In this document: piece by piece, positions 2,143-40,649 of the stretch
Layout of the letters: the number at the start of each line of letters is the position of its first letter
Numbering within the stretch: the stretch's first letter is position 1
Virus record (IMG/VR): IMGVR_UViG_3300037045_000370
Span: 1-40,649 of that record
From: a virus
Lineage: Duplodnaviria > Caudoviricetes
DNA: 40,649 bases
Strand: one strand, 5' to 3'
Made by a program: the position numbers and the translations under genes
Notes under the pieces: model-generated
Databases searched by the model: none
Told to the model about the DNA's origin: nothing
Seen by the model: the letters and a program-made list of their open reading frames with translations, nothing else

Positions 2143-2587
2143 ATTCTTTGTATATTATAAATTAATTTTAAACATAATTGGAAGCCTTGACATTTCTTGT
2201 TTTATAATATTTGTTTATAATCCCTAATATTTGTATACAAAGAACATAATTCATTTATACCATACTTTTGGAAAAAAGGAAGTGCTAATCTATTAGCTGA
2301 TTTGTCGAAATTAAGCGTTTTTTTAACCATTAGTTGACACGTATATATTTTTTTTACTAACGTATATATTTTTGTGTGTCGAAATACCAAATAATTTAGG
2401 TTAATTTTTAAAGCTTCTAACCTCCTCCTTTTTTATAATAAATACATCTAGAGCATTGCCCGGTCAAAGTATATATCCATCTTGCCCATATTGTACCATT
2501 AATTTTACTATTTGTTACCCATATCGACAATTATTTACTATTGAACTTCTTCTAGTGGTACTCTTTTCAAAGAAAGGAGAGTGCCAC

Positions 2588-2950
2588 ATGTTCGGGAATA
2601 GACTCAAGTTTCTACGTGAAAAAGAAGATTTAAGTCAAAAAGATCTATCAGTTAAATTAGGTGTTGGGCACTCAACGATTACAAAGTACGAACGAAACGA
2701 ACGACAACCGGACTTTGATATGCTTGTTCGCATTGCCGATTATTTTAATGTATCTACTGATTATTTGCTAGATCGGCATATTGCAGATCTACCAGAAGAA
2801 ATCCCAAAAATAATAACTATGATTTATGCCTTAGATAAAGTGTTAAAGACACCTCAGTCCCTACCTGAAACGATAATGGCTTATAAGGATTATAAAACTC
2901 TGATCGACAGGCTTTTCCTTGACCTCCTAAGTCACAGAGTATCTGATTAA
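2588..2950 (+). CDS. XRE-family HTH transcriptional regulator
   Basis: MFGNRLKFLR...SQKDLS..LGV..STITKYERNERQPD...IADYFNVSTDYLL; AAGGAG RBS before ATG 2588. Confidence 0.9.
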   Translation: MFGNRLKFLREKEDLSQKDLSVKLGVGHSTITKYERNERQPDFDMLVRIADYFNVSTDYLLDRHIADLPEEIPKIITMIYALDKVLKTPQSLPETIMAYKDYKTLIDRLFLDLLSHRVSD

Positions 2951-2954
2951 ATAA

Positions 2955-3755
2955 TCACCGCTTTCCTGAATAATGCCCTCTGATCACATCAACCCTATTA
3001 TGTCCCAAATCCCTTGATACATCTAATTCCTCCGCATCCACAAGCCGGGTCTGCGCATATTCAGATCTATAGCTATGCACATCCATCCTGGAAGGAATAT
3101 AAGAGAATATTGGTTGGCAAGGATATCTGCCTTGAATAATATCCAAAACTCTTTCCTCCATGCCAGCTACTACGGTTACCTCCCTGGCTTTTCCTCCTTT
3201 CCCCTGGCCTACAAAGGCTATAAGTTTACCATCTTTCCAATAAATATCATTAGAACGTATAGCTGCCAACTCGTGTCTCCGGAGTCCAAAAGCTTTTGAA
3301 AAGTCTACCAGTTCACAATATCTATCCGGATTAAAGGTTTTGTCCATAGCTACTGACAACCGGCTACGTTTAATATTTTTTATTCGACGCTTAGGTACTT
3401 TGATTTCGCTGGCCAGATTAGTATCCTTAAATATTTTTCGTAATGCTGATCTATCCCTCTGGATTGTCCAGGCTGATTTACCTTGGGCAATACGCTCCTT
3501 TATATAGATAGCTACATATGGCCTAGACTGCTGCATAGTACGCGCGTACCCACTTCTAGTGCACCAGGCCGCAAATTCGTGTGCAACTTGGCGATATGTT
3601 TTGAACGAAACTATACTAAATATTCCCTCCGGAGCTACCCCAAAGCCGCTTTTACCCTGGATATGTGCTTTATTAATTGCATCCTTTTTAGCTTGGTGTT
3701 TGCTCTGCCCAAATCGCTCCTGATCCCTCAAACTGCTAAGTAACTGGTGAAACAA
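2955..3755 (-). CDS. Compact tyrosine recombinase (resembles Integrase_1-type proteins)
   Basis: Catalytic residues present: GLRRHE (R), GKGGKAR (K), HSYR (HxxR), LGHNR (H), C-terminal HY (Y); true start may be ATA at 3773. Confidence 0.8.
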   Translation of the reverse strand: MFHQLLSSLRDQERFGQSKHQAKKDAINKAHIQGKSGFGVAPEGIFSIVSFKTYRQVAHEFAAWCTRSGYARTMQQSRPYVAIYIKERIAQGKSAWTIQRDRSALRKIFKDTNLASEIKVPKRRIKNIKRSRLSVAMDKTFNPDRYCELVDFSKAFGLRRHELAAIRSNDIYWKDGKLIAFVGQGKGGKAREVTVVAGMEERVLDIIQGRYPCQPIFSYIPSRMDVHSYRSEYAQTRLVDAEELDVSRDLGHNRVDVIRGHYSGKR

Positions 3756-4215: not shown

Positions 4216-5220
4216 TTATTGTACTAAATGCTTACGGTACGCCTCCTGTTTTTTAGACTCGCTTACTTGGGCATATACCTGTGTGGTCGCAGGGTCAGCA
4301 TGTCCCAGTAGAGCCTGCACGGAGGATAGATCGGCACCGTTATTCAAAGTCAAGGTTGCAAACGTGTGTCTAAATGTATGCGGGTGTATATTTTTCTGCA
4401 CTCCTGATCTAGAAGCTATAGCGGAAATTACTCTCTGAATACCTCTAGTACTTAATCTCCGGCAAGGATGCCGTTCAGTGACAAAAAGAGATGGAACCTC
4501 ATCTAGCCGCAACATCAAATATTTCTTAAGATGATACAATGATTTAAACGATAAATAAACTTCCCGTTCTTTATTTCCCTTTCCGATCACGCGCGCGCTC
4601 ATGGCTTGGTAGTTTATATCCACTTTATTTAGTTGCTGGACCTCGCTTAGTCTGCCTCCTGTGGCGTAGAATACTTCCATCATGGCACGTTCTCTAGGAG
4701 ATATACACGCTTCCCTTACTTGTTCTAATTCCTCTATTGTGAGAGCCTTAGGCAGCCTCTGTTCTTTTTTGGGTGGCTTAATGCGTCTTACCGGATCTTT
4801 GATAATTATTTCCTCATCCAATAGCCATCCGAAAAAAGATTTAAGTACGGAGAGTTTTCTGCTGATAGAAGACATTTTTAAATGCTCGAACCGGCTTAGG
4901 TATTCACGAATATCTGATGTAATAATTTGGTCAGTCGGATCAGTAACGTGCTGGGCAAAAATACGGAGTTCGTCGGCATATCCATCAAGCGTAATCTCGG
5001 ATAAACCTTCAAGGCGTTTGGCTGCTAGGAACTGACCTACCTTGTCCCTTATATCAGGATGAGCCCCAGGCAGTTTTGCCGGTCGTATGTCATAGAGAGA
5101 TAGGATCCCAGCGACAGTCATATGGAGTTTGGGCAACTCAATGTCGAAACACAGGTCAGAAACGTTGGATACGAGCTGGTGAAGCAACTGCTCCCCAGCC
5201 TGTTGGGTAGAATTATTCAT
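4216..5220 (-). CDS. XerD/XerC-like tyrosine recombinase
   Basis: N-terminal core-binding region; TGGRLSE, GKGNKER, HPHTFRHTFAT, LLGH...TTQVY. Confidence 0.92.
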   Translation of the reverse strand: MNNSTQQAGEQLLHQLVSNVSDLCFDIELPKLHMTVAGILSLYDIRPAKLPGAHPDIRDKVGQFLAAKRLEGLSEITLDGYADELRIFAQHVTDPTDQIITSDIREYLSRFEHLKMSSISRKLSVLKSFFGWLLDEEIIIKDPVRRIKPPKKEQRLPKALTIEELEQVREACISPRERAMMEVFYATGGRLSEVQQLNKVDINYQAMSARVIGKGNKEREVYLSFKSLYHLKKYLMLRLDEVPSLFVTERHPCRRLSTRGIQRVISAIASRSGVQKNIHPHTFRHTFATLTLNNGADLSSVQALLGHADPATTQVYAQVSESKKQEAYRKHLVQ

Positions 5221-5263
5221 ATGATACCTCCCGTATGGTATTTATTGACCCCGTAGAAAGCGG

Positions 5264-5328
5264 TAAGCAGGCGGTGCCTACGGGAGCACCAAGCCGGGTT
5301 AATTACTCCCGACTTTTTTACCTGCTTA
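5264..5328 (-). ncRNA. Three-way-junction leader RNA with anti-RBS loop (C4/CI-like architecture)
   Basis: Closing stem UAAGCAGG/CCUGCUUA encloses GUCGGG/CCCGGC and GGUGC/GCACC hairpins; the CUCCCGUAG loop region complements two downstream sites. Confidence 0.6.
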
Positions 5329-5334
5329 TAGGTT

Positions 5335-5379
5335 AACATAACATCAATACAGAAACAAGTCAAAACCGAACATTTGTTT
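5335..5379 (-). promoter_or_regulatory. SigA promoter with adjacent LexA box for the XerD-like gene
   Basis: TTGACT (5363-5358), 17 nt, TATGTT (5340-5335) with extended TG; CGAAC-ATTT-GTTT at 5367-5379 (one mismatch). Confidence 0.65.
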
Positions 5380-5409
5380 TATTTTTTATTAATCAGAAAA
5401 TAAAACAAT

Positions 5410-5425
5410 GGAGGCCGAAGCCTCC
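5410..5425 (-). terminator. Hairpin at the end of the lysis cassette
   Basis: GGAGGC-TTCG-GCCTCC on the minus strand followed by ATTGTTTT. Confidence 0.6.
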
Positions 5426-27997: not shown

Positions 27998-28621
27998 TCA
28001 TACCCTGATTAGATTATTTAAAGAATCACTATATTTGTCATAAGTATCTCTGTCCAGTCCAATATATGCTTTAGTTTCCGCTTCACTTCTGTGTCCCAGC
28101 ATCTCCTTAACTAAACTAATGTTATACTCGCTTTCCACATATATCTTATATGCAAAAGTTTTCCTCAATGAATGGGCAGAAATATGTGTAAGACCAAACT
28201 GACGACCGGCATCTTTTAAGATACGGCTCACATGACTAACTGCGATGTGTTTATTATTTCCTTTCCTGGATTGGAATAAATATTCATAATCTTTCTTATT
28301 CTTAATATATTGCACCAGGAGCACATCTAAATTAGTTATTACTTTTACAATTCTAGGCTTAATATTTTCTTTTCTTATATTTTTACTGTTTACCTTTTTC
28401 CCCTCGAGGATCTCAAAATATCCGTTTTTTAAAGCAATCTTGATATCCCTGACCTTTAGACTCACCAGATCGCCGGCCCTGTATCCTGTAGATATACCTA
28501 AAATGAATAATATATAGTCTCGTTCATTTTTACATTTCAAGTAATCTTGTATGTCTAATACCGTTTCTCTGTCTTTTATGGGTCTTGCAGGTTTCTTTTT
28601 AGCCATAACTCCAGGCTCCAA
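27998..28621 (-). CDS. Small catalytic-domain-only tyrosine recombinase
   Basis: TGYRAGD, K, HSLRKTF, LGH....T..YIG; lacks an N-terminal binding domain. Confidence 0.9.
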   Translation of the reverse strand: MEPGVMAKKKPARPIKDRETVLDIQDYLKCKNERDYILFILGISTGYRAGDLVSLKVRDIKIALKNGYFEILEGKKVNSKNIRKENIKPRIVKVITNLDVLLVQYIKNKKDYEYLFQSRKGNNKHIAVSHVSRILKDAGRQFGLTHISAHSLRKTFAYKIYVESEYNISLVKEMLGHRSEAETKAYIGLDRDTYDKYSDSLNNLIRV

Positions 28622-38434: not shown

Positions 38435-39400
38435 GTGCCGTTAGGCAGAAAAGAGCTGGGTAATCGCATTAAGCTTGCCCGTGATGAAAGAGAGCGGAGG
38501 ACAGGAAATAAGTTTTCTCAAAAAGATTTAGCTTTATCTGTCAATAAATCTCGAAGCTATATTGGAGACCTGGAATCCGGGCGTACATATCCCAGTTACG
38601 CTCTTCTTAGCCGAATATCTGAAGCTTGTGACGTTCCGCTAAATTTTTTTGATACTGAGCAATCAGGGTTATGGGTAAAACAAAATCGAGAAAGGCAGAA
38701 TATGTCTATAGAAGATATCTCTCTAGAAGCGACTATACCCGTCGATGTACTTCAGCAGATTGAGGCAGGCCATGTTATAAATGGTGTGACATTAGTACAG
38801 TGGATGAAGATTGGTGAAGTATTGGGACTTACTAATGAAGAAACTATGAAGTATATATTTGAAGACACAATATATCAATCCTTTTTTAAAAACGATGGAA
38901 ATAATAAGAATTTAAACAATATTAAAAATATACTTCTAAATGACTTTAATAACGATTCACATATTCTGCACAAAAAGGTAGGGGCTATTCCATTTGACCC
39001 GGAATCCATAATTATGCTTCCTGTTTATGGCAAAATAGCAGCTGGTATTCCTATAACAGCTAATCAAGAAAACGATTTCTATCCACTAGACACTCGGTTT
39101 ATTAGTCTTAATGGATATTCACAAGATGACTTTTTTTTCCTTCGAGTCCAGGGAGATAGTATGGAACCTGGTATATTTAATAAAGATCTAGTTTTAGTAA
39201 GGTCACAGCCAGCAGTTGAAACTAATGAAGTAGCTGTCATTCTTTATAACGGAGAAGATGCCACGATAAAAAGAGTTACCGTGGCCGGAGATAAAATTGT
39301 TCTTAACTCAGACAACAAGAATTATCCCCCGCAAATATACAATGCAGTTGATTGTCGGATCTTAGGCAAAGTATTGCAACGTATTGGGAAGGTGGTGTGA
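38435..39400 (+). CDS. CI-like repressor: two XRE HTH domains plus S24 autopeptidase
   Basis: HTH1 SQKDLA...SRSYIGDLESG; HTH2 MSIEDIS......LQQIEAG; IAAG cleavage site, GDSM (Ser), ATIK (Lys). Confidence 0.9.
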   Translation: MPLGRKELGNRIKLARDERERRTGNKFSQKDLALSVNKSRSYIGDLESGRTYPSYALLSRISEACDVPLNFFDTEQSGLWVKQNRERQNMSIEDISLEATIPVDVLQQIEAGHVINGVTLVQWMKIGEVLGLTNEETMKYIFEDTIYQSFFKNDGNNKNLNNIKNILLNDFNNDSHILHKKVGAIPFDPESIIMLPVYGKIAAGIPITANQENDFYPLDTRFISLNGYSQDDFFFLRVQGDSMEPGIFNKDLVLVRSQPAVETNEVAVILYNGEDATIKRVTVAGDKIVLNSDNKNYPPQIYNAVDCRILGKVLQRIGKVV

Positions 39401-39404
39401 TGGT

Positions 39405-40649
39405 ATGGAAGAATCAAAACAAAAACAAACAATAGGTTATTATCGGAAACGTGGTAAAGATTCTTATGAATTAGATTATCGACGGAATCGAAAAACCGTT
39501 AAGGCCAAAAATGATACTGAAGCTGCGCGATTACTCGCAAGGTTTATTTCCGAAATAGATTCAGGTAAGTTCCGGAAGCCTTCTAAAATGACCTTAAAGC
39601 AACTATCAGACCGTTTTTTGCGTGACAATCCTGAGCTATCCACAGCCACCAAGAATAACTATGAAATACACCTAAAAGAACGGATACTTCCTTCTTTAGG
39701 GGATAACAAAATTGATAAAATTAAACCAACTCATATTTATGATTTTCTGAATAATCTCAAAGAAGATGGCATAAGGAAAGACGGGAAGCCAGGTGGTTTA
39801 GGAGCAGCAACTATAAAAAAGAATTACAATATTCTTTCGTCAATGTTCTCTTTTGCGGTTGAATTGGGAGAATTAGAAGATAACCCATGCGTAAAGGTTA
39901 AACCTCCTAAGATACCTAAAAGGAAACCGGTAAGTCTTGAAAAAGACCTAGCTATTCAATTGCTTCAAGCCCTAGCTAACGAATCGTTAAAATATAAAGT
40001 AATGGTGTTACTTGCTGCCTGCACAGGTATGCGCCGGGGTGAAATTCTAGGTATTGGAGACAGTACTCTAAATATAGATAATTGTGCAGTTATAATCGAC
40101 CAAGCAACCAGGCATATCGCAGGAGTAGGAATATACTTAAAAGATCCTAAAACAGATGGTAGTATAAGAGCTATTCCACTTCCCCCCAGTATTATGCCGC
40201 TAATTTCAGAGATGATAAATGCTAGGGATCTACAACGCAAAAAATGCGGAGATAAATGGGTTGCTAAAATATTAAAAGAAAGTGAATTGGTTGAAAACGA
40301 TTTACTTTTCACGCAGTGGAATGGAAAACCAATGCATCCCAATACAGTTGATGGATGGTTTAAAAAGTTTAAAGAAGATAATAACTTGCCGGAAAACCTG
40401 ACATTTCATGGGCTTAGACATACTAATATCACCCTATTATTGAAGTCCGGGATAGACGTAGGAACTGTTGCTGACAATTCTGGGCACACAAAGAAATCAA
40501 CAACATTAGATTATGATGATCCTTCTCCTGAAGCTTTGCGTGAAGTTGCCAATAAAATAAATACCGTTCTAAACCTTCAAGAAACTGTGCCCGGCCTATT
40601 AAATTTCCCTGTAAATATCTATCGATTAAAAAAGAAAAAATCTATGTGA
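39405..40649 (+). CDS. int: Prophage integrase (tyrosine recombinase)
   Basis: Arm and core-binding regions; TGMRRGE, PKT, FHGLRHT, GH....TT.DY; probable start ATG 39405. Confidence 0.93.
   Translation: MEESKQKQTIGYYRKRGKDSYELDYRRNRKTVKAKNDTEAARLLARFISEIDSGKFRKPSKMTLKQLSDRFLRDNPELSTATKNNYEIHLKERILPSLGDNKIDKIKPTHIYDFLNNLKEDGIRKDGKPGGLGAATIKKNYNILSSMFSFAVELGELEDNPCVKVKPPKIPKRKPVSLEKDLAIQLLQALANESLKYKVMVLLAACTGMRRGEILGIGDSTLNIDNCAVIIDQATRHIAGVGIYLKDPKTDGSIRAIPLPPSIMPLISEMINARDLQRKKCGDKWVAKILKESELVENDLLFTQWNGKPMHPNTVDGWFKKFKEDNNLPENLTFHGLRHTNITLLLKSGIDVGTVADNSGHTKKSTTLDYDDPSPEALREVANKINTVLNLQETVPGLLNFPVNIYRLKKKKSM

Follow-up and report, generated by a model that had tools for sequence, protein, structure and literature searches.

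What controls a Xer-like recombinase gene that is carried in a provirus, and does the leader of its own message take part in that control? The gene lies on the minus strand of a window of 40,649 nucleotides, the whole of a provirus record (IMGVR_UViG_3300037045_000370) that encodes an integrase (39384-40649) and an S24-type repressor and also carries genes for replication, packaging, and lysis. An earlier note on this DNA had proposed that the recombinase is controlled by LexA and, as a second layer, by a leader RNA analogous to the C4 and CI RNAs of phages P1/P7 and P4. The features of the locus are collected in Table 1.

Table 1. Predicted features of the recombinase cassette, in window positions
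Feature	Positions	Strand	Details
Xer-like tyrosine recombinase, 334-aa	4216..5220	-	ATG 5220; profile scores, alignment
Ribosome-binding-site hairpin AUACC/GGUAU	5224..5241	-	T2 UACGGGAG 5235-5228 over Shine-Dalgarno GGAGGU 5231-5226
Target T1 (putative decoy)	5249..5256	-	CUACGGG 5256-5250, 3' of pyrimidine-rich linker
Three-way-junction RNA	5264..5328	-	folding, covariation; P1 = 5327-5320 with 5272-5265
P3 hairpin	5273..5290	-	guide CUCCCGUAG at 5286-5278
P2 hairpin	5291..5315	-	9-nt loop 5307-5299, palindrome UAAUUA 5305-5300; predicted to dock on a second copy
Second extended -10-like element TATG-N-TANNNT	5330..5340	-	overlaps first -10, five bases downstream; in 35/46 homologues
Sigma-A type promoter TTGACT-17-TATGTT	5335..5363	-	-35 5363-5358, -10 5340-5335
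LexA-like operator	5368..5379	-	one mismatch to Bacillota consensus
Intrinsic terminator	5410..5425	-	terminator prediction

The residues that we take to be the catalytic set of tyrosine recombinases (R190, K214, H281, R284, H307, and Y316) were all found to be intact in the protein, and they are invariant among 33 aligned homologues. The protein scores just over the cut-off of the XerA-like model NF040815 and below those of the NCBIfam models for XerC (228.6 against 335.15 bits) and XerD (217.1 against 329.6 bits); the nearest named proteins, which are 80% identical, come from Syntrophomonadaceae. Upstream of the gene are an amidase gene and then the terminator, which closes the upstream lysis genes and insulates the recombinase cassette. 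The homologous cassettes described below are placed after endolysins, between tail fibre and holin genes, or before major tail, baseplate, or head-tail genes, and a terminator-like hairpin, judged by eye, follows most of their recombinases. The cassette looks mobile. A search with a dif pattern found no dif-like site adjoining the gene in the window, and no shared att or dif-like site stood out at the cassette ends when the flanks were compared across members.

Several other elements of the window were recorded. A tRNA-like 3' half ending in CCA (1791-1733, minus strand), with a second amidase gene beyond it, is likely an attachment-site remnant that marks the prophage end. Downstream of the recombinase are a 266-aa open reading frame with a weak integrase N-terminal match (2955-3755, minus strand) and, convergent with it, an HTH regulator (2456-2950, plus strand); a similar integrase-like reading frame may come after the recombinase in L208. 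An additional tyrosine recombinase of 207 aa (27998-28621, minus strand) is located upstream of the terminase genes.

The promoter TTGACT-N17-TATGTT and the LexA-like box beside it were found on the minus strand exactly where the earlier note had placed them. From the spacing of the -35 and -10 elements, the start is predicted at the first bases of P1; the second -10-like element could provide a possible second start within P1. The LexA operators of the Bacillota follow a GAAC-N4-GTTC-like consensus. A promoter scan by itself was at chance level (9 found, 7.4 expected), and a LexA-like box that departs from the consensus at no more than one base was found 52-56 nt before P1 in 28 of the 46 homologous leaders, against 0.76 expected from shuffles. 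The other 18 are without such a box, and seven of these (L459, L465, L471, L474, L475, L467, and L420) have an ATCG-N6-CGAT-like inverted repeat at a similar position, possibly the operator of a phage repressor. The recombinase promoter is probably controlled by DNA damage. Another GAAC-N4-GTTC match, a perfect one, is intergenic at 2130 (plus strand), close to the prophage end.

Homologous leaders were collected from the loci of recombinase relatives, by DNA patterns, and with a covariance model that was built from 10 hand-picked leaders and included no loop-target pairs. The analyzed set consists of 46 distinct leaders, one of which (L239) was added by eye; duplicates, three weak matches without the fold (L415, L416, and L423), and L422 were left out. 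L422 holds, at 537-629 on the minus strand, a cloverleaf of this type that has a promoter and lacks both the targets and a downstream gene; it could be a free-standing form. Xer-like recombinases of two subfamilies, from Bacillota phages, follow 45 of the 46 leaders, and an HNH gene follows L414. In the copy L112/L208 the leader is intact and an early stop breaks the recombinase gene. Searches of Bacilli with the covariance model returned solely the known member (1/136 and 1/151), loose DNA patterns gave mostly chance matches, and a metagenome scan (2 of 64 parts) gave few close relatives.

The three-way junction that had been claimed at 5328-5264 was confirmed by folding and by covariation. 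The fold is computed at -32.2 kcal/mol (z -5.46), and none of 200 shuffled sequences was as stable. Among 42 model-aligned rows, with a mean identity of 62% and only one of 861 pairs above 90%, 96% of the cells pair and double changes are found in 19 of the 21 pairs. None of 500 shuffles and none of the slid controls reached this covariation, in an alignment that was itself fitted to the model, and the G-U pairs agree with transcription of this strand. A further conserved leader, unlike the first, was observed about 140 nt before the recombinase start in one clade of the same recombinases (L002, L003, L005, L006, L013, L015-L017, L022, L051, L226, L230, L232-L234, and L242). It consists of a closed stem with internal loops and then a long hairpin, the CGCUCC-like 3' arm of which could pair with its own 5' arm or with the Shine-Dalgarno sequence; no Rfam match was found for it in the 12 of these loci that were scanned, and the recombinase-leader model did not detect it.

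The loop of P3, hereafter the guide, was demonstrated to be complementary to 5256-5250 and 5235-5228, as previously claimed. The sequences CTACGGG (T1) and TACGGGA (T2) each occur once on the minus strand of the 40.6-kb window, and their single plus-strand copies are the guide. Counting by alignment column gave 81.8% paired for loop and T2, with two of five measures not above shuffles; register slips weaken such counts, and tests were therefore made per sequence. The energies of a guide with its own targets were -12.3 kcal/mol for T1 and -13.2 kcal/mol for T2, against -8.0 and -8.8 kcal/mol with the targets of others. None of 20,000 permutations reached the cognate energy, and the same was true when each distinct guide was represented by a single member (n = 29). 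Strict runs of at least 6 were found in 41 of 46 leaders for T1 and in 41 of 46 for T2 (12% and 15% for non-cognate combinations). The covariation of loop and targets in homologous leaders, which the earlier note had named as its check, is borne out in that 39 of the 46 form at least 6 Watson-Crick pairs with both targets, the remainder being L129, L251, L283, L228, L239, L475, and L414. The hairpin that holds T2 over the Shine-Dalgarno sequence, also described previously, is predicted in 46 of 46 leaders.

As naked duplexes, T2 is slightly favoured over T1. A pseudoknot with T1 in cis must cross a helix of about 12 nt with a linker that has a median length of 9 and a minimum of 4 nt; the linker is 4-6 nt long in L489, L239, and L482. 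Three leaders without T1 (L129, L251, and L283) retain T2 and the P2 palindrome. If the 5' strand of P1 is kept unpaired in the computation, each can adopt an alternative fold in which P2 is intact and the guide is buried, at an energy 2-5 kcal/mol higher than that of the cloverleaf; the tails after P1 are U-rich (8, 7, and 7 of 9). These folds and tails indicate that a downstream segment would silence the guide in cis and that T2 is the constant target, which suggests self-silencing of the guide in the long message and a short RNA as the intended partner of T2. Most members have weak tails after P1, and a strong intrinsic terminator there is not the rule. The tail in the window has 4 U of 9 and is a poor terminator, and thus a short form would need trimming.

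Two features had no part in the earlier note: a self-complementary P2 loop and a kinship to the int-alpA RNA. In the P2 loop, 45 of the 46 leaders have a palindrome of 4 nt and 36 have one of 6 nt; the counts for the P3 loop are 5 and 2. There are six cores (AAUU, AGCU, GAUC, CAUG, CGCG, and GGCC), all of them palindromic (0.00055 by shuffling), and the two inner positions have 20 and 19 double changes. A layout of two bases, six, and one (2+6+1) is found in 35 of the 42 aligned rows. The palindrome cannot pair within its own loop, and the simplest reading is therefore pairing with a second copy; it also lies off the hairpin axis and hence did not arise as a side effect of inverted-repeat correction. 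Copies of the RNA thus likely dock on each other through the P2 loop. In the window, the extended P2 duplex is computed at -26.4 kcal/mol against 2 x -10.2 kcal/mol for the separate hairpins. The palindrome and guide form 34 distinct key combinations among the 46 leaders, and on a tree with 44 RNA-bearing rows the guide changes 30 times and the P2 core 22 times. The two copies in genome G329 (L419 and L424) have nearly the same promoter and different keys of both kinds, with weak cross-pairing.

At gathering level, no Rfam family matched in the window or at the leaders of 34 related loci; the link to int-alpA (RF02996) surfaced when further homologues were scanned. L462 scores 35.9 bits (cut-off 35.8) and L455 scores 27.2 bits. 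The window copy does not reach the gathering score of 35.8 and has no match at E<=10, and no int-alpA match was found among the members in G880, G881, G001, G002, G004, G329, and G525 or in 20 loci. A model from the recombinase leaders alone recovers 12 of 34 int-alpA-like loci at the motif, weakly, with E from 7e-5 to 0.6. As in int-alpA, the leader RNA is a three-way junction with a pyrimidine tail, and part of the set has the CUAG and CGAAAAGCG junction words (CUAG in 20 and CGAAAAG in 17 of the 46 members; both are absent in the window copy).

Using an int-alpA consensus pattern, at least 121 loci were obtained from 36 of 64 parts scanned, and 17 of 20 tested pattern loci passed the Rfam cut-off. 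From 93 distinct matches, 86 were kept as a canonical int-alpA-like set and 7 were dropped because of a weak P1. The P2 loops of this set are GACG in 29, a centred palindrome in 50, and other in 7, and two downstream guide sites were found for 44 of 55 distinct guides, against 9.5 by permutation. The genes that follow encode replication initiators, Rha, methylases, and nucleases (a family was found for 14 of 33). Tandem int-alpA RNAs were observed in L553 (853-920 and 1194-1261), beside tRNA genes and before a replication initiator. From the score of L462, the reciprocal detection, and the shared targets and loops, the window RNA is, as far as sequence comparison can tell, a divergent relative of int-alpA, and its wiring of a guide loop with two downstream sites and a self-complementary P2 loop is family-wide. 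It differs from int-alpA in its longer P2 with a 9-nt loop, its LexA-like box, and the Xer-like recombinase gene downstream in place of replication, Rha, methylase, or nuclease genes; the box and the recombinase setting are new relative to the catalogued int-alpA.

Rfam types int-alpA (RF02996) as "Gene; sRNA". The motif reportedly originates in a survey of 224 motifs, which may already note a pairing of its loop with the ribosome-binding site. The name int-alpA was not found in the available part of the main text of that survey (PMC5737381), and no mechanism for it was found in print within a coverage that excludes subscription journals. One paper, as excerpted, lists the int-alpA RNA in E. 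coli genomes, and in the excerpt of another the term denotes a gene order and not an RNA. The xerDC motif (RF03062), likewise an orphan motif named after Xer-like recombinase genes, had no match at E<=10 in the window or in four member-bearing genomes. A match to AS-pc01 (E 0.06, opposite strand, 22.7 against 79 bits) was taken as chance.

C4 antisense RNA is known for its leader-targeting scheme. Like C4 of P1/P7 (RF01695) and the CI RNA of P4, as the accessible parts of PMC4825925 and PMC3632133 describe them, the present RNA is a small multi-stem leader with two-site loop-target pairing on its own transcript. The analogy drawn in the earlier note stands with respect to this loop, which is complementary to and covaries with two own-transcript targets; a kinship does not, since the C4 model had no match at E<=10 in five records (the window and four leader-bearing records) and the related family is int-alpA. 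To our knowledge, no self-complementary docking loop has been described for C4 or CI. The C4 and CI RNAs are RNase P substrates according to the part of PMC5499578 that is accessible, whereas the window RNA is predicted to begin at +1, so that an RNase P cut is not needed, and has both of its targets downstream. IsrK of Gifsy-1, which had no match in the Rfam search of the window, resembles the present RNA in that a short 5' form sets the translation of its own read-through message in trans (PMC4825925, in excerpt). IsrK activates through strand invasion over about 30 nt, whereas the 7-9 nt loop of the window RNA is predicted to target the Shine-Dalgarno sequence.

The dimerization loop of HIV-1 has a 2+6+1 layout. 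The P2 loop recalls this layout, and the HIV-1 DIS and Moloney GACG kissing loops, as presented in the available sections of PMC7357161, are alike in having a six-nucleotide apical palindrome or a GACG tetraloop that is capable of homodimer formation; GACG is described there as a homodimer kissing loop. They differ in being retroviral packaging signals of unrelated sequence, and the palindromes of the window family are A/U-rich with flanks that are not strictly purine. Functional natural RNA oligomers are rarely reported, to go by the accessible portions of PMC7357161 and PMC12990946.

Relatives of the recombinase that lack the RNA were compared on a FastTree tree of 125 recombinases, on which presence of the RNA changes 17 times. 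A divergent small regulator gene is found in 40 of 78 RNA-less relatives, and a short divergent open reading frame, counted without a Pfam scan, in 2 of 43 RNA-bearing relatives. Among the 40 genes, 27 are of the Cro/C1 type (HTH_26) and 13 are alike, two of them with weak ribbon-helix-helix matches. The exclusion is strong by the Fisher test (p 7e-8) and borderline by a kinship-aware sign test (median p 0.06), in which the RNA and the divergent gene never change in the same direction. The leader RNA would take the place of probable repressor genes in relatives, which fits negative control.

A structured leader, a covarying loop that covers the ribosome-binding site, and a LexA-like box at a conserved position together support the earlier proposal of a second layer of control over the recombinase. 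We give about an even chance to a self-contained cassette in which the leader acts as a translation brake, with a short RNA copy docking on the message and blocking ribosome binding. LexA likely holds the promoter low in the lysogen, and transcription likely begins at P1. On the full message, the guide would likely pair first with the decoy T1, which is made earlier and is single-stranded, and the weak hairpin at the ribosome-binding site would stay usable. The guide would stay free in a stable cloverleaf without T1, the product of partial termination or of trimming at the 3' end, and this cloverleaf would dock on the message through kissing of the palindromic P2 loops and pair its guide with T2. 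SOS induction, or entry into a cell that lacks the short RNA, would then give a pulse of recombinase that would be shut off as the short RNA accumulates; the variable palindrome and guide would be two keys against cross-talk between co-resident phages. Against this brake stand the slight preference of naked duplexes for T2, the few short T1 linkers, the poor terminator of the window tail, the 18 of 46 leaders without a LexA-like box, the borderline exclusion after kinship, and the L422 cloverleaf, which lacks both targets and a gene downstream. IsrK, the nearest precedent that has been tested, activates in trans and does not repress, in the excerpt of PMC4825925.

The same covarying parts would also explain a switch of the opposite sign, in which the guide of a lone leader pairs T2 in cis and keeps the gene off until abundant transcripts let two full leaders dock through P2, the T1 of each captures the guide of its partner, and both ribosome-binding sites open. 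The slightly stronger T2 duplex, the linkers of L489, L239, and L482 that are short for a cis pseudoknot, and the trans activation by IsrK of its own long message (PMC4825925, in part) point this way, and such a device, if true, would impose a threshold that filters out leaky SOS transcription. However, the guide of the three T1-less leaders is buried by a nested fold, most simply in cis, and the position of the RNA where relatives have probable repressor genes fits negative control; we consider activation by dimers unlikely. We doubt to the same degree a purely cis switch, in which a single molecule pairs its guide with either T1 (on) or T2 (off), as decided by folding kinetics, a second start that shortens P1, or a protein, the palindrome serving another purpose such as a nuclease or protein site. 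Both targets are reachable on one RNA, and the second -10-like element of 35 of 46 leaders would start transcription within P1. However, self-complementarity is the sole constant of the P2 loop across six forms and GACG, which is hard to reconcile with a protein that reads sequence, and the off-axis position removes inverted-repeat correction as a source of the palindrome.

Attenuation of the C4/CI type, in which the short RNA would pair with nascent T1 and T2 to cause premature termination and the translation block would be secondary, seems quite improbable to us: pairing of the P4 CI RNA with seqA and seqC ends transcription (PMC4825925, accessible part) and some members have U-rich tails, but T2 is always on the Shine-Dalgarno sequence, no target lies upstream of the RNA, and the tails are weak in most members. 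That the structure acts as DNA, as an operator or recombination site, or is functionless is scarcely credible, because although it adjoins a recombinase and palindromes suit dimeric DNA-binding proteins, its G-U pairs agree with the transcribed strand, its start coincides with the predicted +1, loop and targets covary over long range, the same RNA family precedes unrelated genes, and few members have a dif-like site nearby (1 of 46 upstream and 3 of 41 downstream, 0.8 expected for each).

Returning to the brake, the comparison yields a wiring diagram of docking loop, guide, decoy, and ribosome site, and an RNA of 65 nt stands where relatives have a repressor gene. Orthogonal riboregulators may be at hand in the 34 natural key combinations of the 46 leaders. 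On a broader reading, which in our judgement falls somewhat short of an even chance, int-alpA would be a widespread, protein-free device by which an RNA counts its own copies, a palindromic or GACG kissing loop acting before a keyed loop shuts the ribosome-binding site; in the present prophages it would be a drop-in repressor, wired to LexA and swapping with Cro- or ribbon-helix-helix-type genes, that pulses a recombinase. If this self-counting reading is true, it would be a natural case of bacterial translational control by RNA homodimerization.
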